Part shown: piece after piece, positions 1-64,000 of the stretch
Position numbering within the stretch: the stretch's first letter is position 1
Layout of the letters: the number at the start of each line of letters is the position of its first letter
Source of the DNA: a virus
DNA length: 64,000 nucleotides
Virus record (IMG/VR): IMGVR_UViG_3300010398_001198
Span: 32,001 to 96,000 of that record
Reading direction: 5' to 3' (one strand)
The notes under the pieces: model-generated
Told to the model about the DNA's origin: nothing
What the model saw: only the letters and a program-made list of their open reading frames with translations
The model's database searches: none
Program-made: the position numbers and the translations under genes

Positions 1-35
1 TCGGATATCGCTTATACCTCGAAGGACGGCCTCTG

Positions 36-2807
36 ATGCCTCTGCCAGCGAATCAAGTCCATCCATCCATGCAAACAGCGGCAGAGCCGTTCTTTCCAAA
101 CGGAACACTTCACGCTGGGGTGTACACATTGGTCTTCCGCGTGCGCCGCATCCGCGATGGACGCTTATTGCGCGAACACCGCCTCATCAACATGCCCGTC
201 CGGATCACCGTCTCCACCGAGGTGCGCACAGCGGTGTACTATACGAAACAAGGGCCAGTCGCGGATACGCCACTCGGTGGAGGCGTTGGCATGACGTATT
301 TTGCGATCACGGGCCATACCGGTATTGCGGGGGTACGGAACAATGGCCGTACCCTGGCGGCGACGGTCGGTCTAGAGTCGCCCGCGCTCCAGGGCCCACC
401 GCTGCCACCGGGGAGTAGTCTCATTGACGGCGCGGCGGCCATTAAAGACCTGCAGGACATGATCTTCAGTTACTTTTTTCCGCAGGGCTCCCCACCCCTG
501 CCGGGCGTCACGCATGCGCAGGACCTCCAGCTTGAATTTCTCAACCTGACCGCCCCGACCTCGGCCCAGGACCGCACCGGGCGTGTCGGCTGGATTATTC
601 ATCCGCACCGCAACCTCGTCGATATCCAGCAAGAGGCTCCCAAACCGTTTCTCTATACCTACACGCTGCAGTTTCCCGCCCTCGGCTCGACCAACAAGCA
701 GATCCCGGATCGCTTTGTACGCGAGTACACCGATCCGACGAGTGGGCTCGGGCCGGTGCAGCGCCACCTGGCCGATGCCCTCGCTCCCATTCCCGCCACC
801 GCTGCCCTGGGCGGCCTGCGTCTGCCCACAACCCCGGCTGCCCTGACGACCTTCCTGGCGCAGCCTACGGCGTTCTTGGTCGCGGCCACCGCCGAGGTGC
901 AACGGCTCAATACGATCCGGGCAACGGCCCTGAAGATGCTGGACGAGCAGACCGTCAAGGCGATGCGGCCCTTCCTGGCCGGCGTCCAGGGCCTGAGCAC
1001 GGCGGTGCATGACTTTGTAGGCGGGATTGCCGCGACGATCCGCTTTCCCCTCTACGCCAAGCAACAGGTCGGGGCGGCCTTTGGCACCGCCCTCGATCTG
1101 CCGAGTTACTCCGTCGCCACGCTGAAAAAGGCTGCCCAGGACCTCACGCATCTCTTCGATATCGCCTCGGAGGCGCGGGCGGTCAGTGGACTCAACGCGG
1201 GCGAGACGCTGAGCAGTGGTGTCAATGACCTGCTCACGCTACGCCTGAATGACGAGCCCCCGGTCACCCTGGCCCTCGGGACGCTGACGAGCGGCCCCGC
1301 CATCGCCGCCGCGATCCAGGACCAGATCCGTGCGCTGGCGCCGACCGTCCCAGGCAACGCCAGCGCCTACCGCGACTTCACCGCGACCTTTGCGGATGGC
1401 CAGTACCGGCTGGTGTCGGGGACCCAGCATAGTGATGCGGCCCACGTTGCCGTGGTGGTGAGTCCGGATCCCGACCTGACCCCCGGCGATGCCAGCGGAG
1501 TGCTCGGTCTGGGCCTCGCCCACGGCGGCCAGGAACAGGCCGGCAGTGCCGCCGCCAATGACGCGATCGCCCTATTGCGGGGGGTGGAAGACGCCTGTAC
1601 GCATCTGCTGGCGTTCCCGGACTATTTTGCCGACCAGTTGGACGCCCAGGATGCGCGCCTGGCGGCCCTGCTCCCCCCAGGCTCCAGTCGTCCGCAGATC
1701 AGCGGCGACCAGCACATGCAGGAGACCATCATTACGCCGGGCGACAGCCTGCAAGGCATCGCGGCCCGGGTGGGCGTCGACTGGCAGAGCCTGGCGCTGG
1801 TGAACCGCCTCACCTATCCCTATCTCCTCGAGGAGCCGACCACCCTCCTGCGCGGACGCGTCAGTAGCGCGACGCACTGGAGCCTCAGTGATACGAGCCA
1901 GACGTGGCCGGTGAATGCCTACGAGGGACAACGTGTCGATATTGTGGGGGGGATTGGGGCGGGCCAAAGTCGGCGCATTCTCCAGAACACGGCCACGGCG
2001 CTGGTGGTCGATCCGGCCTGGGAGGTGGTACCGGAAGATATCTCGCATTATGCCATTCGCAGTGCGGAGAATCCGGTGGTGCTGACCGGGACCGTGAGCA
2101 GCGCCACGGCCCGCACCGTGACCAATGGGGCGCTCGCCCTCGTGCCGGATAGTCAGCGCGGCCTGACGCTGGTCCTCACCAGTGGGGCGACCGCAGGGGA
2201 GCGGCGGCGCATTATGGCGCATGACCAGACGACCTACACACTGGACCACGACTGGGACGTGATCCCGCCCGGCGGCACGCTCTACCTGCTCTTGGGACCA
2301 GGCCAGGCCACCCGTCGCCAACTGGTCGTGGGTGACCGCCTGAAAGTGCCGCAGCCCAGCGCCCAGGCCGTGCTGCCCCTGCGCAGTCGTCTGGCCGATG
2401 TGAGCGCCATCACCGGACGCCAGGTCAGCCTCGAAGAGCAACTCTTTGGGCGGGATCTGCTCCTCCAGGACGGGGCGCTGGTCTATGATCCGGCACGGGG
2501 GGATGCGGTGAGCATCGCGGGGCTGGACAACTTACGCGCAGCGCTCATCCACTATGTGAACCTCCCCATCGGGGAACTGGAATACCAGCCCGGCATCGGC
2601 TCATACCTTCAGGAAGAGTTAGGCTTGGTCGCGACTCTGCCCTTGGAAATTCAGGTCCTGAGTTCGCTGGAACGGACGATCCGGCAAGATCCTCGGATCG
2701 CGGCGATGGCCGGCGCTCGCATGCACACGCAGGGTGGTGTCACGCAGATTGCCTTTGGGGCCACGGCGATTACGGGGGCTTCGATAGAACGCGTGGTGGT
2801 GCGCTAA
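36..2807 (+). CDS. Baseplate fusion protein: tail-tube-initiator-like N-domain + LysM + C-terminal gp25/gpW-like wedge domain
   Basis: 923-aa ORF. LysM-like TIITPGDSLQGIAARVGVDWQSLALVNRL...LVVGDRLKVP; C-terminal GRDLLL...GLDNLRAALIHYVNLPIGELEYQPGIGS...TIRQDPRI is typical of gp25/DUF2634. Stop overlaps the baseplate J start (TAATG). Confidence 0.75.
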   Translation: MPLPANQVHPSMQTAAEPFFPNGTLHAGVYTLVFRVRRIRDGRLLREHRLINMPVRITVSTEVRTAVYYTKQGPVADTPLGGGVGMTYFAITGHTGIAGVRNNGRTLAATVGLESPALQGPPLPPGSSLIDGAAAIKDLQDMIFSYFFPQGSPPLPGVTHAQDLQLEFLNLTAPTSAQDRTGRVGWIIHPHRNLVDIQQEAPKPFLYTYTLQFPALGSTNKQIPDRFVREYTDPTSGLGPVQRHLADALAPIPATAALGGLRLPTTPAALTTFLAQPTAFLVAATAEVQRLNTIRATALKMLDEQTVKAMRPFLAGVQGLSTAVHDFVGGIAATIRFPLYAKQQVGAAFGTALDLPSYSVATLKKAAQDLTHLFDIASEARAVSGLNAGETLSSGVNDLLTLRLNDEPPVTLALGTLTSGPAIAAAIQDQIRALAPTVPGNASAYRDFTATFADGQYRLVSGTQHSDAAHVAVVVSPDPDLTPGDASGVLGLGLAHGGQEQAGSAAANDAIALLRGVEDACTHLLAFPDYFADQLDAQDARLAALLPPGSSRPQISGDQHMQETIITPGDSLQGIAARVGVDWQSLALVNRLTYPYLLEEPTTLLRGRVSSATHWSLSDTSQTWPVNAYEGQRVDIVGGIGAGQSRRILQNTATALVVDPAWEVVPEDISHYAIRSAENPVVLTGTVSSATARTVTNGALALVPDSQRGLTLVLTSGATAGERRRIMAHDQTTYTLDHDWDVIPPGGTLYLLLGPGQATRRQLVVGDRLKVPQPSAQAVLPLRSRLADVSAITGRQVSLEEQLFGRDLLLQDGALVYDPARGDAVSIAGLDNLRAALIHYVNLPIGELEYQPGIGSYLQEELGLVATLPLEIQVLSSLERTIRQDPRIAAMAGARMHTQGGVTQIAFGATAITGASIERVVVR

Positions 2808-4315
2808 TGCCCTTAACTATCCTTCCGAAGGACCACATATTATCGAATGAAGTCAGCTATGTGCTCGCGGGCAATATCGTCAATGACATTAACAACATCT
2901 CCGTCTTGCGCCAGTTCCTGGAAGCGGATGCGGCGAGCCTGGCTGATCTCTACTACGCCCTTTATACGACGGTGCAAGGATGGTTCATCAATGCTGCTGA
3001 AGGGATTGATCTCGATATCCGCGGGCGGGATATGGGCCTGGCGCGGGATGTCGGTCAGGCCGCCTCGGACCTGGTGACCTATACGCCCCTTGCGACCTGG
3101 GTGGATGACATCCCATTGCCTGCCCCACTTGTGGTGCAGGCCACCCTCGCCGATGGCACCCAGGTCCTCTATCGCTCCCTGGGGGATCTCGTCCTCACGC
3201 CCTCGGGACGCAGCATCAGTGGCCAGGCCCCGGCCACCAGCCTGACCGGGGGGACCAATGACCATCTCACCCTCAACCTGGATAGTGATGGCGCGCAAAC
3301 CATCTTCCTGGGCACGCAGACCACCGCGACCGGCATTGCGGCCGCGATCCAGGCCGCCGTCCGCGCCTTGACGGCGGTGTATCCTAGCAACCAGCAGGCC
3401 TACACCGGCTTTCGCTGCGATTATGGCGTGACTACGGCGGGCGCCTACACCCTGAGGTCAGGCAGTGCGGGCTCATCGACAGCCGTCGTGGTCACGGTGG
3501 CGGCGAGTCTCGACGCCTCGCATGTCCTCAAACTCGGCCTTACCCAAGGGGGGATCGAGACAGTGGGGCAGGACGAGCTCGCCGTCCCTGTGGTCTGTGA
3601 TCAGATTGGGGTCATTGGCAATGTGGGCGCCGGCCAGATCAACACGCAGGTAAGTGCCGTTACGGGTATTGACCATATCGCCAATCCCCTCATGGTTGCG
3701 AATGGCCGCGAACCGGCGAGTGATGACGCCTACCGGCAGGATCTGCGCTCGTATCTCCTGGCGCTGGGCCGCGGGACCCAGGATAGTGTCGAGCGGGCCG
3801 TGGCGCATACCGTCAGCGCCGATGGGCAGATGCACGTCATGTCCAGCCAGGTGGTCTATGGCGCAGGGACGATCCAGGCCTATATCTGCGATGGCCGCAG
3901 TCTCACGGTGGGCGCGCAAACGGATGTGATTCAGGACGTGCAGGATGAGTTGGACGGACTCGGGCAGGAAGTCGGCGGCTGGGTGCCGAGCGGCAACGCG
4001 GCGGGCGTGGTTTCCGCCAATATTCTCACCGTCAACGTCAATGTGACCGTCACGGTCGGCCCTACGCCGGACCTGGTCAGAGCCCAAGCGGCCATCGCCA
4101 CCGTAATCTACCAGACGCTCTACCAGTGGGGTGTGGGCCAGAGTCTGTCCTATGCCCAACTGACTACCAGAATTGATGCGGCGGTGGCGGAAGTGTTTGA
4201 TGTGGTGTTTACGCTGCCCGTGGCATGGACGACCGCGCCGCCGCTCGCCATCGGCGGGGCCATCGGGCAAAAAGTGATGCCGGGGGCCATCGCCGTGCAG
4301 GTCGTGCGGGCGTAA
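2807..4315 (+). CDS. Baseplate J/gp6-like wedge protein with an inserted domain
   Basis: AEGIDLDIRGRDMGLAR...A; GNVGAGQIN...GIDHIANP...NGREPASDDAYRQ...RGTQDSVERAV motifs; position after the gp25-like domain. Confidence 0.9.
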   Translation: MPLTILPKDHILSNEVSYVLAGNIVNDINNISVLRQFLEADAASLADLYYALYTTVQGWFINAAEGIDLDIRGRDMGLARDVGQAASDLVTYTPLATWVDDIPLPAPLVVQATLADGTQVLYRSLGDLVLTPSGRSISGQAPATSLTGGTNDHLTLNLDSDGAQTIFLGTQTTATGIAAAIQAAVRALTAVYPSNQQAYTGFRCDYGVTTAGAYTLRSGSAGSSTAVVVTVAASLDASHVLKLGLTQGGIETVGQDELAVPVVCDQIGVIGNVGAGQINTQVSAVTGIDHIANPLMVANGREPASDDAYRQDLRSYLLALGRGTQDSVERAVAHTVSADGQMHVMSSQVVYGAGTIQAYICDGRSLTVGAQTDVIQDVQDELDGLGQEVGGWVPSGNAAGVVSANILTVNVNVTVTVGPTPDLVRAQAAIATVIYQTLYQWGVGQSLSYAQLTTRIDAAVAEVFDVVFTLPVAWTTAPPLAIGGAIGQKVMPGAIAVQVVRA

Positions 4316-4487: not shown

Positions 4488-6734
4488 ATGGCCGACACCC
4501 TTGCCATCTCGACCGGCGATATTCTCTCCCGGATGCTCAGGAGGCTTCCGCCGAGTCTCTGGGACACCGATCCGAGCGCCGACACGCTCCAGCGCGATCT
4601 CTTTGCCGCCATCGCGTCCCAAACTGCCGTGTGGTTGGAACAACGCGACATTGCCCGCACCATGACCTTGATGTTACAGGCCGAAGGCATTGATCTTGAC
4701 GTTTTACTTCAAGATTACGGCTTAAAAAGATATTTGCAGCTCCCGGACCCCTATGCCCGCCAGGTCGGGATGCACATCTTGTGGACCCCGCAGGGCACGG
4801 GGTATAGCGTCGCCCGGCTGGCCGATCTCCTCTTGTACAACCAGCCGCATGTCACCATGCGTACGGGCCGCAACGAGCAGCACGTCTTTGTGGCGTCGGC
4901 GCAGTCCGTCACGACTCCCTACGGCTACTGGGGCCTGGTGAGCGACGAGGGCCTGTGGTACGCCGTCACCGTGGACGGAGAAGTCCCGGTGTGCAGCCTG
5001 GCACCGCCCTGTGGGGTGGATCTCTCTCCAGGCCCGCACACGCTCAGGTGGTTCACGGTCCTCGACGAGAATGCGGCGCCCTGGTACGTCACCGTTGCCG
5101 CTGATACCCTCACCGTCTCCCAGACGCCGCCGCAGGGCTACGGCACGGCGGACCCCTTCTATGTGCTGGATGGTCACGGCAACCGCTGGGGGCTCAGTGT
5201 GGACAGCCGCAGTGAAGCCCTGGTGACGACCGTGTCTCCCGGCCTGACGACCTTTGGCTACTGGCGCGTGCGCGACCGGGCCGGCACCGTGTACGACCTG
5301 TGGATCGAGGGCGAAGTCCCCACCATCGCCACCGCACCACCCGGCGGGAGTACCGACCAGACACCGGGCGGCTCGCCCCTCGACTGGCTGAGTGTGGCCG
5401 ATGAGACCGGCACCTCGTGGTTTCTGACCCTCCAGGACGACACCCTCTTCCCACAGCGGACGTCCCCAGGCGGCACCGGCACGACCGCCGATCCCCAATT
5501 CCTTGATGCTGGCAGCCGCCTCTGGAGCCTCAGCGTGGACAGTCGCGCCGAAGCCGTGGTGAGTACGCTGCTGCGCGCGGTGACCTCGGATTACCTCGTG
5601 CTCGATCCTGGCCATGCGTATCAGGCCCTGCGGCTTGTGGACAGCAGCGGCGTGCCCTGGTGGCTCTCGATCAGTGGCGGGGCGCAGCGGCTCACCGCGA
5701 CGCAACCAGTGGGCGCCGCCGACGTGACACCGTCGGGTGGTCCCTATCGCTGGCTGCGCGTGTACGACCTGGCCGCGATGCTGTGGTACGCGTACCCGAA
5801 TACCAGTGGCACGCTCGTGGTTTCGACCACCAATCCTGGGGGTCTGGGGACGGCGCAACCGCAAACCCTAGGGGATAGCGCGGGTGTCCTCTGGCACTAC
5901 GGCGTGAGTGGCGGGGCGTTTGCCGTGAGCAGCACGCCCCCCGTCGATTATGGGGGCATGGCGACGGCGGTCTGTCTCAATGATCCGACGGGTGCCCGCT
6001 GGTTCTGGCGCGTGCACGAGGGCGCCTTGCAATGGTCAGCACAACTTTGGCCCGATACCATGGATCAAAGTCCGTGGGGCGAGCTCGGCTGGCTGCAACT
6101 CCTCAATGATGTCAGTGCGACGGTGTATGTCTCGCCTGGCGTGGCCGGCATGCCGCTGGTGACGCTCGCCCCGCCAGCCAACTCCCCCTGGGGCTGGAGT
6201 CAGCCCGTCACGCTGCGCGATGTGGAGGGGACCGCCTGGCACCTGACAGTCAGCACGCGCCCCCAGACCGTGGAGTACTGGCGGCTGCACGATGCCACCG
6301 GAACCGTGGTCTATCTCTCCATCGATGCGGAGGTACCGCTCCTGGCCGCGACGCCACCGGGCGGGGGCACGGACCAGACGCCGGGCGGGCAACCCCTCGA
6401 CTGGCTCACGATCTATGATGAAGGCGGTGGGGTCTGGTATAGCGCGGTGGAGGGGGATACGCTGACCATGACGCACACGCTGCCCCCAGGGACGGGGACG
6501 CAGGTGCCCGTGAGCCTCTGGGGCACAACAGGCATTTTCTGGCAGATCCAGGGTAGTAGCCTGACGGAGGCACTCGTCACCGTCGCCCTGCCCAGTCCCA
6601 ATGTGGTCGGCGTCGTCCAGGATGCCGCTCCAACACTGCCACTGCCGATACCGACGCTGCCACTGCGCGATGCCGTGGATGCGATTAGCCACATTCAAGC
6701 CGCTGGCTCGCTCGTGACGGTGCGGGTCAGTTAG
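4488..6734 (+). CDS. Baseplate wedge gpI/gp7-like protein with a large internal repeat region
   Basis: N-terminal AEGIDLDVLLQDYGLKR...DPYAR and C-terminal IQAAGSLVTV flank about five Trp/Gly/Pro-rich ~105-aa repeats; follows baseplate J. Confidence 0.7.
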   Translation: MADTLAISTGDILSRMLRRLPPSLWDTDPSADTLQRDLFAAIASQTAVWLEQRDIARTMTLMLQAEGIDLDVLLQDYGLKRYLQLPDPYARQVGMHILWTPQGTGYSVARLADLLLYNQPHVTMRTGRNEQHVFVASAQSVTTPYGYWGLVSDEGLWYAVTVDGEVPVCSLAPPCGVDLSPGPHTLRWFTVLDENAAPWYVTVAADTLTVSQTPPQGYGTADPFYVLDGHGNRWGLSVDSRSEALVTTVSPGLTTFGYWRVRDRAGTVYDLWIEGEVPTIATAPPGGSTDQTPGGSPLDWLSVADETGTSWFLTLQDDTLFPQRTSPGGTGTTADPQFLDAGSRLWSLSVDSRAEAVVSTLLRAVTSDYLVLDPGHAYQALRLVDSSGVPWWLSISGGAQRLTATQPVGAADVTPSGGPYRWLRVYDLAAMLWYAYPNTSGTLVVSTTNPGGLGTAQPQTLGDSAGVLWHYGVSGGAFAVSSTPPVDYGGMATAVCLNDPTGARWFWRVHEGALQWSAQLWPDTMDQSPWGELGWLQLLNDVSATVYVSPGVAGMPLVTLAPPANSPWGWSQPVTLRDVEGTAWHLTVSTRPQTVEYWRLHDATGTVVYLSIDAEVPLLAATPPGGGTDQTPGGQPLDWLTIYDEGGGVWYSAVEGDTLTMTHTLPPGTGTQVPVSLWGTTGIFWQIQGSSLTEALVTVALPSPNVVGVVQDAAPTLPLPIPTLPLRDAVDAISHIQAAGSLVTVRVS

Positions 6735-6743
6735 GAGGATAGA

Positions 6744-7796
6744 ATGCCGCACATGCTCGCGCAGCAACATCAGGGCATTTACGACTGTATCCGGGCCGGC
6801 ACGGCCCGGACACATACCACGATCAGTGCAGCGCTCACGGCGATTGGCAGTACCCCAACGATGCTGGTGCTGACCTTTGCCGGGGATGGTATCTGGAGTA
6901 TCGGCGCCAACCTGACGATTCCCACGACCATTACCCTGATGATCCCGCCGGGGGTGACGGTGAACGTGGCGGCGGGGATCACGCTGACCATCAATGGCGC
7001 GTTCCTGAGCTACAATACCGGCTGGAAAACCGGGACCGGCACCGTGGCCCAGACCCTGATTACCTCCCATCTCTCCAGCGGGGTGACGGCCAATACGTTT
7101 CTCGCCCAGCCGGGCGCCGCGACCGGGATAGGGGTGGTCGTGGAGAATGGTCCCGCCTCGACGGCGGCCCGCGTGCGCCTCTTCACCGATCAAGGCGGTG
7201 GACAGTCGGGCCTCCAGATCAGCACCAATGATGCGGCGGCCAATATCCAGGGCTGGCAGATCATCGTGGGGGGCGGCGGCTCGCTCGCCTTTGCCCGGCC
7301 AGGTGGGAATTCGATGATGCTCCTCAGCAATACCGGCTTAGGCATTGGCCTGGGGCAAGTCCCCGGCGGCTTGCTGCAACTGCTCAGCGATAGCGCCTAC
7401 AAGCCCGGGGCTGGGGGGCTCTGGAGTATTCCCTCCTCGCGGGCGCTCAAAGACATCACCGGGGACTATACGGAAGGTCTGGTCCTGCTGCGGCGCTTGC
7501 CCCAGGCGGTCCGCTTTCGCTATAACGGGAAGGGCGGCACCGAGGTGGATGGCCCTGCGGACGTGGGCTTTGTGGCGGAGGACCTCCAGGCCGTCGCGCC
7601 GCAACTGGTACGCGAGGTGGTCAATCCGCACGCCGAGGAGGAACCGGACCTGCCCACCATGCTGGCCACCAATCTGGGCGAGATCCTCTACGTGCTCATC
7701 AACGCCGTGCTCGAACTCGACCGCCGTGGGGGTGGGACTGCCGAAGAGGCCCAGGCTGCACCAGTGCCGCCGCAGCGGCGCCGGAGGACCGCCTGA
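6744..7796 (+). CDS. Tail fibre/spike with C-terminal intramolecular chaperone (peptidase S74)
   Basis: SSRALKDIT...VRFRYNG...GFVAEDLQAVAPQLV...LINAVLEL matches the S74 pattern; strong RBS AGGAGG. Confidence 0.8.
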   Translation: MPHMLAQQHQGIYDCIRAGTARTHTTISAALTAIGSTPTMLVLTFAGDGIWSIGANLTIPTTITLMIPPGVTVNVAAGITLTINGAFLSYNTGWKTGTGTVAQTLITSHLSSGVTANTFLAQPGAATGIGVVVENGPASTAARVRLFTDQGGGQSGLQISTNDAAANIQGWQIIVGGGGSLAFARPGGNSMMLLSNTGLGIGLGQVPGGLLQLLSDSAYKPGAGGLWSIPSSRALKDITGDYTEGLVLLRRLPQAVRFRYNGKGGTEVDGPADVGFVAEDLQAVAPQLVREVVNPHAEEEPDLPTMLATNLGEILYVLINAVLELDRRGGGTAEEAQAAPVPPQRRRRTA

Positions 7797-8053
7797 TGCC
7801 GCAGATCCTCTTGCCGCTGGAAATCAGCCTGCGCATGACCATCGCCATCCTGGAGCGCGACCTGGCGCAGACCCAGGCACGCTTGCTCCAGGTGACCGCC
7901 GAGCACCAGCATCAGGCCAATGTTGCGGCCCTGCTCGCCCAGGCCGGGGTGGCGCTGCCTGTGCCGCTGAGTGCCTGCACGTTTGATGCCGAGCAGGGCG
8001 TCCTGCGCTTTGAGGCAGAGGAGCCGGAGCTCCCGGCCCTCCCAGAGGCCTGA
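7796..8053 (+). CDS. Small coiled-coil protein, possible fibre assembly chaperone
   Basis: 85 aa, coupled to the fibre stop codon (TGATG). Confidence 0.55.
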   Translation: MPQILLPLEISLRMTIAILERDLAQTQARLLQVTAEHQHQANVAALLAQAGVALPVPLSACTFDAEQGVLRFEAEEPELPALPEA

Positions 8054-8075
8054 GGCATAAAACATCAGCAGCTTA

Positions 8076-8105
8076 TTGACACCCTCACAGTCTCTCCTAT
8101 ATCAT
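8076..8105 (+). promoter_or_regulatory. Sigma70-type promoter
   Basis: TTGACA (8076-8081), N18, TATCAT (8100-8105). Confidence 0.6.
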
Positions 8106-8112
8106 AGGAGAT

Positions 8113-8158
8113 GCGTGTGGAAGTCGGCCGTAAGGCTCGGCATCCACACGCTTTTTTT
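8113..8158 (+). terminator. Intrinsic terminator-like hairpin directly after the promoter (sRNA or attenuator)
   Basis: GCGTGTGGA...TCCACACGC 9-bp stem with inner GCC-GTAA-GGC, followed by T7. Confidence 0.7.
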
Positions 8159-8310
8159 CTGTGTGAGTCTTGCTCACCTGTCGGTCGACTTCTGGACGCA
8201 CGTTGCAATCAGCGCATGGTCCCATGACGGCCCGCGCTGGTTGACTTCCACGCGCCCCCCTTCCGGTTGCGTAGGCTGGAAGGGGGATATACCCGCCTGG
8301 AGGACAGCAC

Positions 8311-8685
8311 GTGCTGCGTTTCTTCCTCTCTGCACTCCTCCTTGGTCTGCTTCCCACGCTGGTGGATGCCCAGTGTCCGGACCTCACCACGCCGCAAAGC
8401 CCCTTTGCCAAAGAGCCGCTGCTGGTCTCCTCGACCCCGGTGGCCCTGACCGCCTCGATCTATAAGCCGGCGGGCATCATTCCCACCATGGCGGTGGTGA
8501 GTGTGGAGGGCGGCGCCATTCGCTATGAGGTCGTCGGAGCGCCGACGGCCACGACCGGTCACCCGATTGCTGGGACGCCCCCGCAAACCTTTCCCATCTG
8601 TGGCCTGGACTCGATTGCCGCCTTTCAAGCCGTGCGCCAGAGCCAGGACGCGCAACTCTTCATTACCTACTACCGTGCGAAATAG
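8311..8685 (+). CDS. Secreted hypothetical protein (signal peptide)
   Basis: GTG start after GGAGG; MLRFFLSALLLGLLPTLVDA|QC. Confidence 0.75.
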   Translation: MLRFFLSALLLGLLPTLVDAQCPDLTTPQSPFAKEPLLVSSTPVALTASIYKPAGIIPTMAVVSVEGGAIRYEVVGAPTATTGHPIAGTPPQTFPICGLDSIAAFQAVRQSQDAQLFITYYRAK

Positions 8686-8695
8686 GAGCCGTCGC

Positions 8696-11600
8696 ATGCC
8701 GCGCCGCCTCATCTGGCTGTTGAGTCTGCTGCTCGTGCTCCAGCCCGTGGGCCTCGTCGCGCAGGTTCTGCCTCCGCTTGCGCCGGCAGGGGGCGGCAGT
8801 ACCCCGACCTTTCCCGGCTCCCTGTGTACCGATATGGTGGCCATCGGCCAGGACACCGCCGGGCTGATGGTGTGTTCTCCTGTCTTGCCACCCATGGCGC
8901 CAGGGCTGGTGCCGAGTGGAGGGGATGTCAGCGCCAGCGGCCAGGTCCTCCAGACGCACCTGAGTAGCCCCTTGCCTGTCCCCCAGGGCGGGATGGGGCT
9001 CACCACCGGCACATCCGGCGGCATGCCCTACTTCAGTAGTGCCACCACACTGGCCTCGACGCCGACCTTTGCCCTCAATGCGCCCATCCTGGGCGGGGGT
9101 GCAGGCCAATCGCCCGTGCCGGGCACGCTCTCGGGGACGACCCGCGAACTCGCCAGTGTCACCGGTGCACATGTTCCCAACCGCCAGCTGACCTTTGACG
9201 CCAACGGCAACGTGATTGCCAGCCCCTATGACGTCATAGGCGGGGTCCAGGTCCTCAGCGTGTTCGGACGCATCGGGGCGGTCACGGCGCAAAGTGGTGA
9301 CTACACGGCGGCGCAAGTGACACATGCGGCCTCCCTCACCGCCGCCAATGTGTTTACGGATCCTGGGGGCCAGACCATGCCCCTGCTGGCCCTGACCGGC
9401 TCCAGTAGCGGTACGCTCTATGTACGGGCGCCGGCCGCGGCAGGCGTCTCCCTGGTGGTGCTCCCGGCGGGGGTGAGTGATTTCTCGTCGACCGGCGGCC
9501 CGAGTCAGGTCGTGCAGCAGACCACCACGGCAGGGGCGTTCACGGTGAGTCGCCTGAGCCTGGCTGATCTCGCCGATGGGGGGAATGCCTGCACCAGTGC
9601 CAGCCTGTGCCCAGGCTATCAAGCCGCGCTGGGGTTTCCGCCGGAAAACGTCAGCAACAAAACCTCGGACCCGGCGCTCGGGGGCAGTGATTTCCTCTAT
9701 CCCACCCAGGCCGCGGTCAAAGGCTACGTGGATGCCGGGCTGGCGGGGAAGCAAGCCCTCCTGGGCTTTGCGCCGGAAGACCGCGCCAACAAAGCCTCCA
9801 GCGCCGTGCTGGGGACGAGTGACACCCTGTATCCGACCCAGAATGCCGTCAAGGCCTATGTCGATACGGGCCTGGCCGGCAAGCAGGCGAGCCTGGGCTT
9901 CACGCCGGAAAACGTCACCAACAAAGCCACCGCGACCGCCTTAGGGACCAGCAACACGCTCTATCCCACGCAGAACGCGGTCAAGGTCTACGTCGATACT
10001 GGGCTGTCGAGCAAGCAAGACACTCTGGGCTTTACGCCGGAAACCACTGCCAACAAGGCCACCGGGACCACCCTGGGGACGAGTGATACCTTTTACCCCT
10101 CCCAAAATGCCGTCAAGGTCTACGTGGATGCGGCCATTGCGACGGTCCAGGGCAGTATTACCTGGGGGCCGGGCCTCACCTTCAGCGGTGGCGTGGCCAG
10201 TGTCGCCTCGACGGAAACGGGCTTTCTGACGGGCGCCAGCAGTGCCCTCGCGTGCGGGGCCTCGGCGCAGGGCAAGATGCAGGTCCTCGACACTGGCGCG
10301 CTCCAGTACTGCGATGGGGCCACGACGGCCCTGCTCCACAGTGGCTTCCTCACGCAGAGTGGTCTCACCTGGAATGTCACCCCGAGTGCCTGTACGGGCG
10401 ATACCAATGGCGGCAAGCTGACCATTGTGGGCACGGAAATCCGCTGCGCCTCGGACATCGGCGGCACGGGCGGGGCGGGGGGCGTCACCAGCGTGTTCGG
10501 GCGCACCGGCGCGGTGGTGGCCACCGCCGGAGATTATCTGGTCAGCCAGATTACCAACGCTGTCGATGTCACGGCGGCCAACGTCTTTCCGCACGCCAGC
10601 GGCCAGTCGATGCGGCAACTGCTCCTGCCTGGGGCGACCTCGGGAACGCTGACGGTCAAAGCGGCGGCGGTGGCCGGCAGCAGTACGTTGACCTTGCCGG
10701 CGGGGGCGACGGATTTCAGCAGTACAGGCGGTGCGGGGCAAGTGGTGCGCCAGAACGCGGCGGGGGGCGCGCTCACGGTCGCGGCCCTGGCCTTTAGCGA
10801 CCTCACGGGGACCGGCGCGGTGTGTACCACCGCCGGCGTCTGCACGGGCTACCAGGCGACCATCACGTGGGGTGCCGGGCTCAGCGTCACGGGCGCGACC
10901 GCCAGTGTGGCCTCGACCGAAGCAGGCTTCCTCACCACGGGCAGCACGGACCTCACTGCGGGGGCCGGACAAGCCGGGAAGATGCAGGTGATCGCCGATG
11001 GGCGCCTGCAATACACCGATGGCGCCGCGACTCCGCTCCTGCGCCAGGGCTATCTCCTCACCCCCCTGGGCGGCCCGGGCGTGCTCCAGGCGAGTACGGG
11101 GGGCACGAGTCTGGCGGCCTTTGCGGGGAGTGCCTGTAACGATCCTGCGGCGTTTATGACCGGCCTGACGCCCACCGGCGATGCCATCTGCGGCCTCCCT
11201 GCAGCGCTGGTCTTCAGCAGTCGAGCCCTGCTGGCGACGGCGAGCGCGACCTTTCCCAGTGCCGTCAATCTCGGTGCCCTGGCCGGCGGCATCGTCAAAA
11301 CCACCGTCAGCGGGGGTCTGGCGAGCGTGAGTACCGTGATCGCGCCGACGAGCGCCCTGGTGGGGGTGGACGATCCGCAGATCCTCACCCAGAAAGGGGT
11401 GGCGCCGCGTGCCGCCCCATTTGCCGGCGTCTCCCCCGTGGTTGGGAATCTGAGTACCACGGATCTCCTCGTCGTGAGCGGGCTCACCGGGTCCACGCTG
11501 ATCGGCAATCCGCAAGGCGCCACCAGTGCCGGCGGGCTGGTGCGACTCCAGGTGACCTCCGCCACGCCACAACCCCTGACCTGGGATACCCTGTGGAGTA

Positions 11601-12829
11601 GCGAGGGAGGCTCCCCCCTGCCCACGACCACGACCGGCGGCAGCACCTATGACATGTTCTGGTTCCAGTACAACGCCACCTCCGGCAAGCTCGATCTCGT
11701 CTACAACTCGCAACTCATGCAGTGGACCCTCCCCACGGGTGTCACGCCGGGGACCTATACCTGTCCGGGCTCCGTGACGATTGATAGCCGGGGCCGGGTG
11801 ACGGCCATCGCCAACGGCACATGCGGCGGGGGCACGGGAGGCACCCCAGCGGGAGGTGTCGGCGATGTCCAGATCAACGGCGGCGGGGTCCTGGCCGCTG
11901 ATCCCGGCGATTTCGCCTATGACGTGGGCACGAAAACGTTGATCGCCCCGCACCTCCTTGGCTCGCGTCGGCGGACCTATGCCACCTTCCGCGATCTCCA
12001 GGGCCAGGCCACGTATGTGCTCGCCCCGGCCATGCAGAGTAAGGTGCACGTGCAGTCCCTGCCGGATGAGGACGGGGAATACTGCGTTAAGGGGGGGAGC
12101 TGCTTTGCCAGCGGCGGGGTCACGGTCTCCGGTACCCCGACGGCTGGACAAACGGCGGAATTTACCGCGGCGAGCGTGATCCAGGGCGTGAGTACCACGG
12201 GCAGTGGCAGCTATGTCAAGGCCGGGAGCCCGACCCTGACGACCCCCACCATTGCGGCCCTAGCGAATCTCACCAGCAATGGGGTGCTCACGACGAGTGG
12301 GGGCACGGGCACGCTCGTGGTGGATACGGGGGGCACAACCGGCACGGGGGCCTGGGTGAAGGGGACGAATCCGACTCTGACCGGGCCGACGATTGCCGCG
12401 CTGGCGAACCTGACGACCAATGGCATTCTCACCACGACGGGGGGGACGGGTACGCTCGTGGTCGATACGACCACCCGCACCGTCGAGACCGGCGTGCAGT
12501 CCCTCACGTCGAGTACCACCTATACCTGTGTGCGTAATGGCCCGAGTACCCAACCAGTCATGAATGAATGCACCATGACCTACACCGGGGCTGCCGGGGC
12601 CACGGTGACCATCGGCACCTCGGGGACACTCCAGGACGGCGATCGCTTTCTGGTGCGTCTGCGCTGCACGGTGGGGGCGCAGACCATCGCCTACGGCGCC
12701 AATATTATCAATAGCCTGCAAATCATTGGGCCGACGAGCTGCCCGCTCGACGGTGCCCGCGAAATTGTCATAGGACTTCTCTATTCTGCGGCACTCGCCA
12801 AGGCCCAGGTCATTGGGAGTACGAACTAA
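8696..12829 (+). CDS. Long tail-fibre/adhesin-like repeat protein with signal peptide
   Basis: Start MPRRLIWLLSLLLVLQPVGLVA|QV at 8696 (RBS AGGAG); SVFGRTGAV repeats, 4x GFTPEN..NK...LYPTQNAVK.YVD repeats, fibre-tip-like C-terminal domains. Confidence 0.8.
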   Translation: MPRRLIWLLSLLLVLQPVGLVAQVLPPLAPAGGGSTPTFPGSLCTDMVAIGQDTAGLMVCSPVLPPMAPGLVPSGGDVSASGQVLQTHLSSPLPVPQGGMGLTTGTSGGMPYFSSATTLASTPTFALNAPILGGGAGQSPVPGTLSGTTRELASVTGAHVPNRQLTFDANGNVIASPYDVIGGVQVLSVFGRIGAVTAQSGDYTAAQVTHAASLTAANVFTDPGGQTMPLLALTGSSSGTLYVRAPAAAGVSLVVLPAGVSDFSSTGGPSQVVQQTTTAGAFTVSRLSLADLADGGNACTSASLCPGYQAALGFPPENVSNKTSDPALGGSDFLYPTQAAVKGYVDAGLAGKQALLGFAPEDRANKASSAVLGTSDTLYPTQNAVKAYVDTGLAGKQASLGFTPENVTNKATATALGTSNTLYPTQNAVKVYVDTGLSSKQDTLGFTPETTANKATGTTLGTSDTFYPSQNAVKVYVDAAIATVQGSITWGPGLTFSGGVASVASTETGFLTGASSALACGASAQGKMQVLDTGALQYCDGATTALLHSGFLTQSGLTWNVTPSACTGDTNGGKLTIVGTEIRCASDIGGTGGAGGVTSVFGRTGAVVATAGDYLVSQITNAVDVTAANVFPHASGQSMRQLLLPGATSGTLTVKAAAVAGSSTLTLPAGATDFSSTGGAGQVVRQNAAGGALTVAALAFSDLTGTGAVCTTAGVCTGYQATITWGAGLSVTGATASVASTEAGFLTTGSTDLTAGAGQAGKMQVIADGRLQYTDGAATPLLRQGYLLTPLGGPGVLQASTGGTSLAAFAGSACNDPAAFMTGLTPTGDAICGLPAALVFSSRALLATASATFPSAVNLGALAGGIVKTTVSGGLASVSTVIAPTSALVGVDDPQILTQKGVAPRAAPFAGVSPVVGNLSTTDLLVVSGLTGSTLIGNPQGATSAGGLVRLQVTSATPQPLTWDTLWSSEGGSPLPTTTTGGSTYDMFWFQYNATSGKLDLVYNSQLMQWTLPTGVTPGTYTCPGSVTIDSRGRVTAIANGTCGGGTGGTPAGGVGDVQINGGGVLAADPGDFAYDVGTKTLIAPHLLGSRRRTYATFRDLQGQATYVLAPAMQSKVHVQSLPDEDGEYCVKGGSCFASGGVTVSGTPTAGQTAEFTAASVIQGVSTTGSGSYVKAGSPTLTTPTIAALANLTSNGVLTTSGGTGTLVVDTGGTTGTGAWVKGTNPTLTGPTIAALANLTTNGILTTTGGTGTLVVDTTTRTVETGVQSLTSSTTYTCVRNGPSTQPVMNECTMTYTGAAGATVTIGTSGTLQDGDRFLVRLRCTVGAQTIAYGANIINSLQIIGPTSCPLDGAREIVIGLLYSAALAKAQVIGSTN
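9625..10140 (+). repeat. Four tandem ~38-codon repeats inside the fibre gene
   Basis: LGFPPENVSNK..YPTQAAVKGYVD / LGFAPEDRANK..YPTQNAVKAYVD / LGFTPENVTNK.. / LGFTPETTANK..YPSQNAVKVYVD. Confidence 0.9.
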
Positions 12830-14000: not shown

Positions 14001-14004
14001 CCCT

Positions 14005-14898: not shown

Positions 14899-14909
14899 GG
14901 AGATCGCTC

Positions 14910-16406: not shown

Positions 16407-16428
16407 GGGAACAAAAAAGAGGTGCATT

Positions 16429-45147: not shown

Positions 45148-45155
45148 GACAGGGA

Positions 45156-45276
45156 GTTTTAAGTTGGAAGTTTTAAGTTTTAAGGGGGAAAGGTTCAGAA
45201 GATGGTACGCGACTACATCAGTCTCCGACCGTAACCCTTCAAACTTCACCCTTAACCCTCTTCTCCGAAGGAGAAG
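45156..45276 (+). promoter_or_regulatory. Heptad-array element, copy C
   Basis: GTTTTAA GTTGGAA GTTTTAA GTTTTAA, 44-nt core (GGGGGAAAG..GAAGATGGTACGCGACTACATCAGTCTCCG), ACCGTAA CCCTTCA AACTTCA CCCTTAA, CCCTCTTCTCCGAAGGAGA-GCCCATG; closely matches copy A. Confidence 0.9.
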
Positions 45277-50344: not shown

Positions 50345-50463
50345 CCGCCCGCTGGGTAGTGACGGCGGAGCGAGCGGACGCGGCTTTCGCCCTTGCCTCA
50401 CAGGGGGTTCGAGGGCGGGTGTCGCGGCCTGGCGCAAGTGACAGACCGGAAGCGAGGTGGGGA

Positions 50464-51375: not shown

Positions 51376-51511
51376 AGTCAGTGGGGCATGCATCTGGGTT
51401 CCTCCAGGGCATGGGAGTATCTCCGGACTCCCCCCATGAGACGCGATGCTGTCACCGTAGTAAGCAGCACCAGACGACCGAATCTATAGAAACAGCACAG
51501 TCAAAGAGCGG

Positions 51512-51543
51512 CCTGAGACGAGGTGCTGTTCACCCGTCTCAGG
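51512..51543. repeat. Perfect 9-bp inverted repeat in the non-coding gap
   Basis: CCTGAGACG-N14-CGTCTCAGG. Confidence 0.7.
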
Positions 51544-52145
51544 GTCCATCGGGACTTAGGGTGTCAGCGCAGGGCCGGCACCGTAGAGCTGGGACAGGAG
51601 CGCCTTGAACTGCGGCCAGGAGCCGAGTCCAGGCGGCGGAGGTGCAGGAGGCACCGCCATGGGGGGAGCGGCTGTGGGCGACGGCGAGCGGCGGGGGCTC
51701 CAGGACCGCGGAGCGAGACGCCAGCCAGCGGGCCGGACACAGCGAGAATGGGGCTCACCATAGAACACGGGCGATGTCTCGAACATACGCAACCTCCTTG
51801 GGCTGGTGCGCGGGCGGCAGACGACTGGCTGTGTGGTCATTGCGAGCCGCGCCTGGCGGGTGCATAACCCAACCAGACGCAGCACAGGCAAGACGACCTG
51901 AGCCACGCAACGTCGTATCGCAGCGCATCAGCAGGGAAAAGGGCTGTGACGGGGGTAGAGAGGGTGTCACAGCAGGAGCCCAACGGTGTGGGCAGGCGTA
52001 CCAGGAGTGGTACGGAGGACCGGCCCAAAGAGCCGGGGTGCTAGGCGCATGCCTAACAGATACGCACAGTGTAGCCTGGGCAGGCGAGGGAACGCAAGCA
52101 AAATGTTCCCCCTGGAGACCGGCACGAGGGGGCCGCAGCGGGCGC

Positions 52146-53174
52146 TTACTTGCCGACGATGGCCTGATGGCTCTCTTCCGCGATCTTGATGAGCGCCACG
52201 CGCAAGGCGGCCTCATAGTCCCCGCCGGCGAGCCGCGTCTGTTGATAGGTCAGCAGGAACATGGCGAGGTGGTCGCGATAGCGGTCGGGCAGGTAGGGCA
52301 GGACGGTGCCCTGTTGCAGGGCGGTGACGGCCTGCCGAATGTCCGGTTCTGGAGCAAGGGGGGCATCTGCCTGGACGGGCCAGAGCAGCGTCAGGAGGCA
52401 GAGCCCGGTGAGGACAGGACGTAGAGCGGCGAATCGTACGAGAGTCGTGATCATAGGTGCTTTCCTTGCATGGTGGAAGAGAAGGCCCCGCTAGGGGGCC
52501 TCGTGCAGCGCCTCACGGTCGGCCTGGCGCTGCGTCAGCACGCGGTGCAGGTCGTCCACCGTGGTGGAGGGCATGACCCAGAGCACCTCAGCGGCAACGT
52601 GCAGCTCGATACTGCGGCGGACGGCCTTGGCCACGCGGACGGCCTCGGCGAAGACGGCCTCGAGGGGCGCGTCGGGGTGGGCCTTCAGGAGCAGAAAGGT
52701 CGGGTGCGTCATGGGGTCTCCTTCTTTGGTCGCTGTCTTTGCCATATCCACCCTCCGTGCTCAGACTCAGGTTCGATGGTCGTGACGAGGGCGAGCGCAT
52801 CCTCAAAGAGACGGTCAAAGAACGCCCTGGGTTGTCCCGACGCCCCTGGATAGAGGGCAACATAGCGTTTGGCAATGTCGAGCAATGCCTCAGCGGCCTG
52901 GGCGAGCCGTGCGTCACGGTTGTCTGGGGTCATCGTCGGTCTCCTTTCTGCCCGTGCGGGCGGGCGTGGTCTTGCGCCAGAGCGTCCGCCAGGGCGTCAG
53001 CATGGCATCCGAGGGCAGCAGCGTCACGGTGCCATCGTCGTGTTCCTCGACCAGGTACTCATCATAGCCCTTGCCATAGTCGCGGCGATGGCGCTCGTAG
53101 GGAATGGGGGCGTAGCCGTCGAGATGGCGGCGGGGCCAGCGTCCGTAGGGACTGTTGGGGATCGTGAGGCTCAT
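52146..53174 (-). CDS. Four small coupled hypothetical genes (52146-52454, 52491-52751, 52709-52933, 52914-53174)
   Basis: RBS-preceded, overlapping ORFs on the minus strand. Confidence 0.55.
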
Positions 53175-53985: not shown

Positions 53986-54561
53986 CTACGGCCTGGGCGG
54001 TTCTGCCGCCAGCGCCTTATAGATCGTCCTTCGCGAACACCCCAGCGTCTGGGCAATCGCCGTGATCTTCTCTCCCCCGCGTCGGAGCGCCTGCGCCTGC
54101 CGTTGTTTGTCCGGCGACAGCACCGGACGCCGTCCGCCCTTATGCCCCCGTGCCCGCGCCGCTTCAAGCCCGGCAATGACGCGCTCGCGGATCATCTCCC
54201 GTTCGAACTCGGCAAAGGCACCAAGCAGATCGAAGAACAGTTTGCCTGCCGTGCTCTGGAGGTCGAGGGCGGCGCCCAGGCCGTCCAGGATGTGCAGCCC
54301 AATCGCCTCAGTGCGGAAGTGGGCGGCGAGCTCTTGCAGATGGAGCAGGGACCGGGCCAGGCGGTCCAGCTTCCAGACGACGAGCGTATCGCCGCTGCGC
54401 AGCACCTGCAAACACTGCGCCAGCCCCGGACGTGCGGTGCGGGCACCGGAGGCTTTGTCGCCGTAGAGGTAGCGTTCGGGGACGCCAGCGGCCAGCAGGG
54501 CATCCCGTTGGAGGTCATACTTCTGGTCACGCGTCGAGACCCGCCAATAGCCGATAAGCAT
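53986..54561 (-). CDS. Serine resolvase/invertase with C-terminal HTH
   Basis: IGYWRVSTRDQ..DLQRDAL...DKASG..RPGL...GDTLVVWKLDRLARS...FEREMIRER...GGRRP...IAQTLGCSRRTIY. Confidence 0.95.
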   Translation of the reverse strand: MLIGYWRVSTRDQKYDLQRDALLAAGVPERYLYGDKASGARTARPGLAQCLQVLRSGDTLVVWKLDRLARSLLHLQELAAHFRTEAIGLHILDGLGAALDLQSTAGKLFFDLLGAFAEFEREMIRERVIAGLEAARARGHKGGRRPVLSPDKQRQAQALRRGGEKITAIAQTLGCSRRTIYKALAAEPPRP

Positions 54562-56976: not shown

Positions 56977-57828
56977 TTATTCGATCTCTTCCACCGTGAG
57001 CATGTCGATGTTCAAGGCCCTTCGCAAGGCCCGTCCCGTCGCCCGCGTGGCCGCGATGCGAATGAAGTGTTGTTTCATGGGGGCTGCCTGGACATTGGCC
57101 GGCGTCGCATCCCCGATATCCGTAAAGCTCCGGCCATCGCCGAACCGCGCAACGCATTGGCACACGGCGACCTCTGGCGTCACTGTGACAATCGTAGTCG
57201 CCAGGTCGACCAGACCGCGCTCATGGGCCAACGCCACGAGACCGTTCACGTACACGTAGTACTTCCCCTGAATAAGCCGCACATACTGCTTGGGTACGTC
57301 GGCGAGCCGGAGCGGCGACGGGTCAGCGGCGGTCTCCTCTTCGGGAGGGCCGTCCTGCGCCGATGGTATCTCCGCGACGGGGGGGGCAGAGACCTCTACC
57401 CCCTGCTCCAGTCGCTCCAATTCCGCTGACAGATCCTTCGGGGGCATCTGCAACTGCTCCGGCGTGAGATGGGAGGCCCGGTGCGCCAGGACCACGGCAA
57501 TCCGGTGCTTGCACAACCCGAGAGGCGCCTGGTGCTGCTGAAAATCCTCACACTCACAGGTTTTCCCTTGAACTTGGTAGCACCCGCTGCCGGTCTCGGA
57601 TGCCACCTCATAGACGCCATCACCCTTGTAGACCACTTTGCTGCGATCGAGGGCGAGTGCCGTGGCCGGTGAGATGCGTGAGGTCAGCGCCTTGTCCGTA
57701 CTGCGGAGGGAGGCCACCGCCGAGGAAAGGCGCACAGCCTTCTTCCAGAGTGCGTCATCAAACGCGACGGTCCCCTGGCCTTCACGGGGAGCTTGGGTCG
57801 TGCCATTCGTCTGTGTTACACTTGCCAT
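56977..57828 (-). CDS. SWIM zinc finger fused to a Rad52/Sak-like annealing domain
   Basis: CECEDF...LCKHRIAV (SWIM); IQGKYYV...GL..LAH...IGDATP.NV....HFIRIAATRA.GRALR.ALNI...EE. Confidence 0.7.
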   Translation of the reverse strand: MASVTQTNGTTQAPREGQGTVAFDDALWKKAVRLSSAVASLRSTDKALTSRISPATALALDRSKVVYKGDGVYEVASETGSGCYQVQGKTCECEDFQQHQAPLGLCKHRIAVVLAHRASHLTPEQLQMPPKDLSAELERLEQGVEVSAPPVAEIPSAQDGPPEEETAADPSPLRLADVPKQYVRLIQGKYYVYVNGLVALAHERGLVDLATTIVTVTPEVAVCQCVARFGDGRSFTDIGDATPANVQAAPMKQHFIRIAATRATGRALRRALNIDMLTVEEIE

Positions 57829-62978: not shown

Positions 62979-63008
62979 CCAACTCTCTATGGTTTATCAT
63001 GAACTCTC

Positions 63009-64000
63009 TTAGATACTGGTGTCTTTGAGTGCTACGCCCAGGCGCCACACGTAGTTACTGACGTGCTTGGCATAGCCCCGCTCATCGAGGCGTTTGCCCA
63101 TGGCGGTTAAGGTCATGGCGTATTCTCCGGTGGTGGCACACCAGGATTTATAGGCGTCATACAGTTCGCCGGCCTTGACCCGCGCTTCGTCCAGCCGGAT
63201 GCAGCATTCCTCGAGAAAGCGGCCCAGGCTGTCCATGTCGCTGCGGTACTCGGCGGTGGCCTGGTGCACCACGTCCGGTACTCCTAAGCCGGTCTGGCGC
63301 CACGCGAGACATCCGCGGACCGCCCAGGCCAGGATGCCCGGCAATTCTGCTTGGAGCTTGGCGGGCAGATCTTTGTCTTGCTCATGGTCGGGGATCGTCA
63401 CCGTAAACGGAATCCGGTGCAGCCTGCGCCAGATCGCATGGTCGGCTCCGCGAATGGTTGGTAAATGATTGCACGCCACCATGAGCTTAAAGGTCGGCTT
63501 GAACTCGAAAAACTCCTGATGCAAAAACCGGGCGGTTACCATGTCTTGCCCGGTCAGGCGCTTGAGCAGCTCCTCATCCAGCCGCTTGCCCTCACCAATT
63601 TCGACCGCGGTCACGAGGCGAGCCCCACGCAGCCGGGCGATATCGTTGGGAATGGTATCCTGCCGTTCCTTCGCGAGCAGCGAGGCAGAGGGCGTCGTCA
63701 GGGCATAGCCACCAAAGAGCGCCCGCAGCGTTTCCAGATAGGTGCTCTTGCCATTGGCCCCACTGCCATGCAGGACACACATGCACTGTTCGCTGGTGTC
63801 GCCCGTCAGGGCATAGCCGACAAAGCGCTGCTGAAATTCGATGAGCGTCTGGGCCTGCTGATCCGCCTGGTTGCGATTGTCCATCTCCCCAGCGCCCATG
63901 GTATCGGGATCGATCGGGCCTTGCGATCCTCCCATAATCCGCCAGAGGAAGTGTTCCCACGTGGGGCAGGTGGCGAGGGGATCATAGACAATCTCCAGGC
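63009..64000 (-). CDS. P4-family/D5-like primase-helicase, SF3 helicase part (5'-truncated by the window)
   Basis: YDPLATCPTWEHFL..., LHGSGANGKST, LTGQD.VTARFLHQEFFEF.P.FKL...CNH.P, AIWRR...IPF; the frame is open to the window edge. Confidence 0.93.
   Translation of the reverse strand, partial: LEIVYDPLATCPTWEHFLWRIMGGSQGPIDPDTMGAGEMDNRNQADQQAQTLIEFQQRFVGYALTGDTSEQCMCVLHGSGANGKSTYLETLRALFGGYALTTPSASLLAKERQDTIPNDIARLRGARLVTAVEIGEGKRLDEELLKRLTGQDMVTARFLHQEFFEFKPTFKLMVACNHLPTIRGADHAIWRRLHRIPFTVTIPDHEQDKDLPAKLQAELPGILAWAVRGCLAWRQTGLGVPDVVHQATAEYRSDMDSLGRFLEECCIRLDEARVKAGELYDAYKSWCATTGEYAMTLTAMGKRLDERGYAKHVSNYVWRLGVALKDTSI

Follow-up and report, generated by a model that had tools for sequence, protein, structure and literature searches.

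Central part of a contractile-tailed soil phage with a candidate built-in conjugation module

Gene transfer is seen as following two separate routes, by phages and by conjugative elements, which differ in their costs, host ranges and size limits. Here we analyze a stretch of viral DNA of 64,000 nt (the window) which appears to combine both. It corresponds to bases 32,001–96,000, the middle part, of IMG/VR record IMGVR_UViG_3300010398_001198, a single linear virus contig of 122,663 nt with a CheckV completeness of 77%, which we call G000. An earlier note, made from the letters of the window alone, had described it as a temperate phage with a full type IV secretion system (T4SS), able to spread both as a virion and by conjugation. 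We consider it, with a probability of about 0.6, to be the central part of a contractile-tailed phage with a built-in conjugation module of the F/ICE kind (ICE: integrative and conjugative element), in which a tyrosine recombinase would be the relaxase and which would allow transfer by mating besides virions.

A 2025 review states that a virus which spreads both as particles and by DNA transfer between cells has not been seen. For six E. coli phage-plasmids with conjugation genes, co-integration or an artefact is suspected (PMC10123127), and p1002-1 has been called a fusion (bioRxiv 10.1101/2025.03.14.643293). G000 resembles phage-plasmids such as P1, N15 and SSU5, and cointegrates such as p1002-1, in the presence of tailed-phage genes and plasmid-type functions on one replicon. 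Unlike phage-plasmids, its contig has no partition genes. The E. coli "conjugative phage-plasmid" cases are recent fusions of known plasmids, whereas the G000 module is divergent and is found in three phage backbones. Phage DNA which can be moved by conjugation is also known from the Streptococcus phage-ICE tandems (PMC13651849) and from the "conjugative prophage" Phi1207.3 (PMC4260502). In these cases the elements have accreted side by side or are moved by ICE machinery, while G000 encodes the machinery inside the phage genome.

The conjugation genes have the order TraL-E-K-B-V-C ... TraU ... TraD, as in the SXT/R391 ICEs and IncA/C plasmids (mating-pair formation type F, MPF-F) and in the PFGI-1/ICEclc-type ICEs (MPF-G). 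The best NCBIfam matches are F-type TraC, SXT_TraD and the PFL_47xx ICE families and, as in the SXT, IncA/C and PFGI-1 systems, some relatives of this T4SS have the MOBH relaxase TraI_2 beside TraD. Unlike those systems, G000 scores far under the cut-offs, its set is shorter (about 15 genes), the phage-borne copies have no TraI_2, and the module is embedded in a genome which encodes a virion.

Relaxases which resemble tyrosine recombinases are established: TcpM, MpsA and MobK (PMC8152469, PMC6414798). MpsA of SGI1 uses the F-type machine of IncA/C, and nicking by MobK requires the catalytic tyrosine (PMC6414798, PMC8152469). A 2026 preprint groups the three as MOB_M, which is missed by standard tools (bioRxiv 10.64898/2026.01.13.699239). 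The recombinase found in the G000 cluster is similar to TcpM of pCW3, MpsA of SGI1 and MobK of pIGRK in its tyrosine-recombinase fold, its full catalytic set and its location beside the coupling protein, which is that of a relaxase; MpsA works with a T4SS of the SXT/IncC type. Unlike these three, the G000 recombinase belongs to Pfam Integrase_1/Phage_int_SAM_2, and the likeness is one of catalytic residues and position, not of direct sequence comparison.

Conjugation genes in a phage genome

A 17-kb tra cluster is found between the tail-fibre genes and the replication genes (window genes are on the + strand unless a minus sign is given). The MPF-F markers VirB4/TraC, TraB and TraU are present with significant E-values: TraB/VirB10 (36336–37535; Pfam TrbI 2.3e-12, NF010289 TraB), the TraC/VirB4 ATPase (37823–40630, the real start probably near 38081; TIGR02746 2.4e-48) and TraU (45862–47121; Pfam TraU 1.4e-21, conserved Cys pattern). 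The type IV coupling protein, TraD/VirD4 (48117–49967), matches TrwB_AAD_bind, TraG-D_C and SXT_TraD (6.8e-71). TraL, TraE, TraK and TraG_N were assigned by synteny over eight related loci, together with Pfam matches on the orthologues. The L-numbered loci mentioned below are metagenome contigs, of which L007, L008, L149 and L150 (from JGI, ENA and NCBI) were read within 10 kb on either side. The TraL-like small membrane protein (34689–35021) is assigned by its position, which in L155 shows a weak PF07178 TraL match. The TraE-like protein (35015–35611) is 28% identical (E 4e-17) to an L008 orthologue bearing a Pfam TraE match. The TraK-like, VirB9-like protein (35619–36335) has a weak TraK_C match (0.0058), and its L155 orthologue also matches TraK_C. 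The polytopic membrane protein at 43714–45147, with a hydrophobic C-terminal half, is TraG_N/VirB6-like: it is 53% identical to an L153 orthologue with a faint TraG_N match.

Other members of the cluster are a candidate pilin, so named by its position (34127–34597; signal peptide and two hydrophobic Gly/Ala-rich segments), a Pro-rich lipoprotein in the TraV position, which is kept in all relatives (37545–38072; lipobox LFGAC), a conserved Cys-rich periplasmic tra protein (42311–43660; weak TIGR03755) and a small lipoprotein conserved in the two related phages described below (49964–50344). PDB profile searches with the TraK-like, Cys-rich and TraG_N-like families gave chance-level matches only. 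The cluster also contains a low-GC gene absent from its relatives (41094–42389), whose duplicated AP2/HNH-type motif was recognized by eye and not by a hidden Markov model (HMM), and which we take to be homing-endonuclease-like.

All ORFs (open reading frames) of the tra cluster are open. The Walker A GK and Walker B DE residues of TraC are invariant among 17 homologues, and the Walker motifs of the coupling protein are invariant among six sequences. The earlier note had described an intact-looking cluster with Walker motifs, which agrees with these results: TraB, TraC, TraU and the coupling protein by HMM matches, the others by synteny. From its genes, this would be a conjugation module of the F/ICE (MPF-F/G-like) kind, divergent but apparently intact, and probably a working cassette. 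The low HMM scores, together with the homing-endonuclease-like insertion and a degenerate repeat within the cluster, might suggest a decaying, non-functional remnant, but the open frames, the conserved gene order and an identity of 44–56% with invariant catalytic residues over many loci make this very improbable.

By its predicted genes, G000 is a contractile-tailed soil phage of at least 122.7 kb. The markers of contractile-tail Caudoviricetes are all found on the contig: large terminase (TerL), major capsid protein (MCP), sheath and Baseplate_J. Both ends of the contig contain packaging and head genes of the phage. Outside the window there are an XkdF-type protease, a scaffold protein, the MCP (phrog_1005, 5e-67), other virion proteins, the tail sheath (phrog_279, 1e-35), a lytic tail protein and a baseplate protein and, at the far end, an N6/N4 methylase followed by TerL (Terminase_6C), which is split by a LAGLIDADG intein. 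A search of the rest of the contig for terminase, capsid and portal genes, as proposed in the earlier note, therefore finds the first two, while the portal is absent from the G000 contig, which breaks there. In two relatives, G003 (MCP 84% identical) and L154 (a 136-kb ENA contig, MCP 81% identical), the order is methylase, TerL, portal, HNH, protease, MCP. The portal of G000 would thus fall exactly in the gap which joins the contig ends. Judging from this order, G000 is nearly the whole genome of a phage, circular or circularly permuted, and short by a few kb.

Phage and tra genes form one replicon, as supported by Logan per-run assemblies from several soil samples; since these runs possibly include the source samples, they provide independent assembly, not independent biology. 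Contigs from these assemblies bridge the phage/tra junction (16–36 kb of the window): a 27-kb contig spans 16059–36000, and another of 36.8 kb starts at 28794 and reaches the tra genes. Over the fibre, middle and tra regions the depth remains even, at 12.6, 14 or 18. Contig breaks coincide with the heptad repeats described below. A misassembly at 32–34 kb, which the earlier note had considered, is therefore ruled out. Nor was any host housekeeping gene or insertion sequence seen among about 80 proteins scanned, as that note had claimed. A repeat search of the window found no direct repeats resembling attachment (att) sites around the tra part. GC content is similar in both halves, 0.56–0.68 throughout the window, with dips at 22–28 kb and 40–44 kb.

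The two halves also share a repeated element. It consists of three or four TTAAG heptads, a spacer of 10–11 or 45–49 nt, and three or four CTTAA heptads, followed by a ribosome-binding site and a start codon. Four copies are found in the window and nine on the contig, where they are located upstream of head, tail, middle, tra and replication genes. The earlier note had reported three copies in the phage half and one in the tra cluster. They are real, far above the TTAAG background: TTAAG or CTTAA is found 75 times in the 122.7 kb of the contig, a mean of about 0.07 per 120 bp, while each copy of the element contains 4–8. The copies in the window are located at 19693–19793 (−; upstream of the gene at 18582–19676, −; folding z-score −3.0), 29921–30024 (−), 31244–31347 (upstream of the gene at 31354–31860; z −3.9) and, inside the tra cluster, 45148–45261 (z −0.25). 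With several mutated heptads, the last one is more degenerate than any of the other eight. Two 42-nt blocks of it are 83% and 76% identical to the copy at 31.2 kb. Each of the nine copies can form a long hairpin in which 5-bp helices alternate with 2x2 internal loops (z down to −6.3). Some mutated heptads are matched on the opposite arm (TGAAG with CTTCA), a hint of selection on pairing.

No copy of the heptad element was found in G003, a close relative, including its orthologous intergenic sites, which indicates a recent spread within the G000 lineage. Such a lineage-specific repeat in both halves supports a long co-residence of the phage and tra parts. Common regulation does not follow, since the element has spread and its tra copy is the most degenerate. 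The co-regulation proposed in the earlier note is not borne out either by the tra operon itself, which has its own divergent promoter region and an XRE-type helix-turn-helix (HTH) regulator (33691–33960, −, identified from its translation), the heptad copy being internal. Between the XRE gene and the operon, a promoter scan found sigma-70-like matches on both strands at 33950–34072, and HTH_3/HTH_31 genes occupy the XRE position in the tra loci of relatives. Similar TTAAG-type heptad arrays are found in more than 116 IMG/VR stretches (for example L041:10120–10215, L101:110–180 and L088:7455–7520). They occur in many unrelated environmental phage contigs, often several per contig, some with a palindromic two-arm layout. 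From this distribution, they look like a widespread intergenic phage element.

A recent cointegrate, an assembly chimera, or an ICE or plasmid located next to or inside a prophage would make the two halves separate elements. Such an origin would fit a linear contig with 77% completeness and a module probably missing from one close structural relative (the 136-kb contig), and it has precedents in the suspected co-integrates or artefacts among E. coli phage-plasmids (PMC10123127) and in the plasmid fusion p1002-1, but it is at odds with junctions bridged at even depth in several per-run assemblies, with phage genes on both sides of tra and at both contig ends, with the lack of att-like repeats, with the similar GC of both halves, and with a G000-specific heptad present in the head, tail, tra and replication regions. 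The spread of this repeat and of the homing-endonuclease-like gene into the tra cluster also argues against chance juxtaposition, as the earlier note had suggested for the repeat. Since the same module recurs inside two other phage genomes, one of them closed by terminal repeats, we regard separate elements as improbable.

The same module in other phages and relatives

A single-sequence TraC query gave no match in IMG/VR; matches were obtained only with an alignment query. About 37 TraC homologues were found, with 45–56% identity, all of them metagenomic. A search with a TraU alignment recovered only two IMG/VR viruses, G001 and G002, which also have a TraC homologue and were read whole. The earlier note had proposed a search of IMG/VR for genomes with both modules, and these two answer that description.

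G001 has 141,598 nt, a 99-nt terminal repeat and a CheckV completeness of 100%. It contains genes for TerL, portal (phrog_146), MCP, tape measure and central fibre J, and its TraC is 56% identical to that of G000. No homologue of the G000 capsid protein or sheath family was found in G001, and its gene set (tape measure, J) points to a long non-contractile tail. Homologues of the G000 tail-fibre operon are found in G001 at 123–132 kb. G002, with 98,897 nt, encodes TerL, portal, scaffold, MCP, tape measure and J, and its TraC shares 44% identity with that of G000. In both genomes the gene order from TraC up to the coupling protein, and on to the lipoprotein and the recombinase, is that of G000, with most identities in the range 34–56%; a small ORF of 143 amino acids is 31% identical in G001. 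The order of the tra genes is identical in eight loci.

On the basis of their predicted genes, three differing virion designs, one of myovirus type and two of siphovirus type, share one conjugation cassette. Its presence in phages with unrelated virion genes suggests that the cassette is portable. The three may be members of a family of dual-route phages which share this cassette with an Integrase_1 relaxase, the same recombinase family mobilising small plasmids now called "non-mobilizable". We propose this broader view only tentatively, giving it somewhat less than an even chance.

More distant tra clusters are found in Entotheonella chromosomes. Their TraC is 34% identical, and an Integrase_1 gene is located 24–40 kb from it. 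Of the markers tried, neither Terminase_6C, nor the portals phrog_145/146, nor TraI_2 was found in them, and these copies are probably plain ICE-like elements. We also considered whether relatives of the phage lack tra, as read from the absence of close TraC relatives. This reading was weakened: the other proteins of the relative with an 84% identical MCP are only 52–70% identical, and it holds for the 136-kb contig alone.

The recombinase as candidate relaxase

The tyrosine recombinase (50359–51375; Pfam Integrase_1/Phage_int_SAM_2) is encoded close behind the coupling protein in five loci: G000, G001, G002, L008 and L153. Its catalytic residues R, K, HxxRH, H and Y are invariant in the alignment. 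A PDB single-sequence search gave chance-level matches only, and a predicted complex with the cytoplasmic part of the coupling protein scored 0.00, which gives no verdict.

Relatives of this recombinase, about 40% identical, are found by tblastn against PLSDB on 171 plasmids, most of them typed as non-mobilizable. Plasmid pSIO1 (4.9 kb, NC_006860.1, 1934–4819; typed non-mobilizable) contains no more than a hypothetical gene and a triad of recombinase, small ORF and coupling protein. The same triad is found together with RepM in pA53P3 (8 kb, NZ_MN657117.1, 5093–7772), also typed non-mobilizable. On a 5.2-kb Acinetobacter plasmid (NZ_CP089049.1, 3610–4748), the recombinase and a small ORF accompany RepM. 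The small ORF of the plasmid cassettes codes for about 80 amino acids. This arrangement of Integrase_1, small ORF and coupling protein is likely an overlooked mobilisation module. The coupling protein of pSIO1 is only remotely similar to that of G000, so the pairing of recombinase and coupling protein would have arisen with different partners.

The intact catalytic set and the plasmid cassettes with a coupling protein make the recombinase a good candidate for a MOB_M-like relaxase, and a tyrosine-recombinase-type relaxase is its likely role. It may instead, or also, be an integrase, because no other one is present in G000, G001 or G002. This T4SS family is found in two forms, either with a MOBH TraI_2 and a gene of about 205 amino acids before the coupling protein, or with Integrase_1 after it.

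These two forms bear on another explanation: the T4SS would be a true part of the phage which no longer moves phage DNA, the MOBH relaxase having been lost, and would be kept for protein delivery, pilus adhesion or aggregation, or DNA release, with the recombinase as integrase or resolvase. TraI_2 is present in L149 and L155 and missing from the phage-borne copies, lysogeny may require Integrase_1 as the only integrase of the three phages, and the Entotheonella chromosomal clusters keep Integrase_1 at 24–40 kb from TraC. However, a coupling protein with intact ATPase motifs is retained in every copy, no effector-like cargo is evident, and minimal plasmids, which have no use for a function as integrase only, combine the recombinase with unrelated coupling proteins. 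We consider this explanation less likely.

Several observations weigh against a conjugative phage with a recombinase as relaxase. No match to the relaxase families PF07514 (MOBH), PF03432 and PF08751 was found in G000, G001 or G002 (MOBQ/MobA_MobL, MOBV, MOBT and MOBC were not searched). TraI_2 and the gene of about 205 amino acids are found right before the coupling protein in L149 (12592–13788) and in L155 (a Tectimicrobiota contig from a metagenome-assembled genome, 17887–19077). No homologue of this TraI_2 was found in the three phages, so the phage-borne copies look like relaxase-loss variants, and their recombinase could simply be a lysogeny integrase. The non-coding stretch which follows it (51376–52146) contains only short repeats, and no origin of transfer (oriT) was identified there. 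The tra HMM scores are significant, yet all of them are well below the NCBIfam curated cut-offs, which indicates a divergent system on a distant branch of the F/ICE type. The "full" T4SS of the earlier note is nearly complete, but TraW, TrbC, TraN, TraF and TraH were not recognised by Pfam and NCBIfam scans of the cluster ORFs (in which the ORF at 40627–41097 was read in the wrong frame). No PF00589 integrase is found in G000, G001 or G002, nor are ParB_N or AAA_31 (ParA) found in G000; G001 has ParB_N and G002 has ParA. A stable resident state of G000 is thus not established, and its description as temperate is not upheld: only Integrase_1, a serine resolvase and XRE-type HTH genes are present. 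L154 contributed no TraC to the homologue list, so the module may be accessory in this phage lineage. Finally, all data are metagenomic, and the Logan runs, which may be the source samples, are not fully independent.

In spite of these points, transfer of the phage by conjugation is plausible. During residence of the phage DNA in a cell, the tra module would build a mating channel. The tyrosine recombinase, acting as a MOB_M-like relaxase, would nick the phage DNA and hand it to the coupling protein, and the genome would pass to a neighbouring cell without lysis, on top of normal spread by virions. If so, this would be a third kind of element, which chooses between lytic dispersal and non-lethal cell-to-cell spread, and it would blur the virus and plasmid calls made by tools such as geNomad. 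The pairing of recombinase and coupling protein suggests that small plasmids encode a large class of relaxases, most of which are not annotated as such, and the recombinase family could then explain the mobilisation of many small plasmids now typed as "non-mobilizable".

Other genes of the phage

The replication genes mentioned in the earlier note include a D5-type primase-helicase (63009–64000, −, continuing to contig position 96679; D5_N, DUF5906, Pox_D5). Its immunity genes are a weaker claim: XRE-type HTH genes are present, such as the one next to the tra operon, and nothing beyond those. A serine resolvase/invertase is found at 53986–54561 (−; Pfam Resolvase 3e-39). The 22–28 kb region is a low-GC island (GC 0.565–0.584) with HNH endonuclease genes, one of them a homing endonuclease at 23863–24939 (−; Pfam HNH 3e-9); further HNH genes are present in G000, for example at contig 255–905. 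TerL with its LAGLIDADG intein is located at contig 119120–122137, and TerL is uninterrupted in G003 and L154. One TraC homologue (P0020) likewise has a LAGLIDADG insert.

A protein of 283 amino acids (56977–57828, −) has a SWIM-like CxC...CxH zinc-finger motif and is common to G000, G001 and G002, with 32–37% identity. Between the replication and packaging genes, at contig 98650–109526, there are a SNF2-type helicase of 1678 amino acids with an 800-amino acid N-terminus and a MoxR AAA+/VWA pair. A tRNA scan and an Rfam scan of the window gave no match, nor did megablast of positions 1–25000 against PLSDB and INPHARED.

The baseplate and fibre genes reported in the earlier note are all present. 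A LysM/baseplate protein (3–2807, beginning upstream of the window; Pfam LysM, phrog_975 baseplate) is followed by a Baseplate_J protein (2807–4315; Pfam Baseplate_J) and by a tail-fibre/receptor-binding operon (4488–18429) with an endosialidase chaperone, 132-nt tandem repeats, a LamG lectin and fibre C-termini. The operon includes an endosialidase-chaperone fibre (6744–7796), a Laminin_G_3 protein (13915–14898) and a fibre (16384–18429). A fibre-like gene coding for 1442 amino acids contains three of the 132-nt tandem repeats at 9614–10140, which are 71–73% identical to the reference copy. In one run (X3), the distal fibre gene at 16661–17860 is represented by a strongly divergent allele, in which segments are replaced and substitutions are numerous, although the contig is otherwise almost identical. 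This allele is a case of microdiversity at the probable receptor-binding end.

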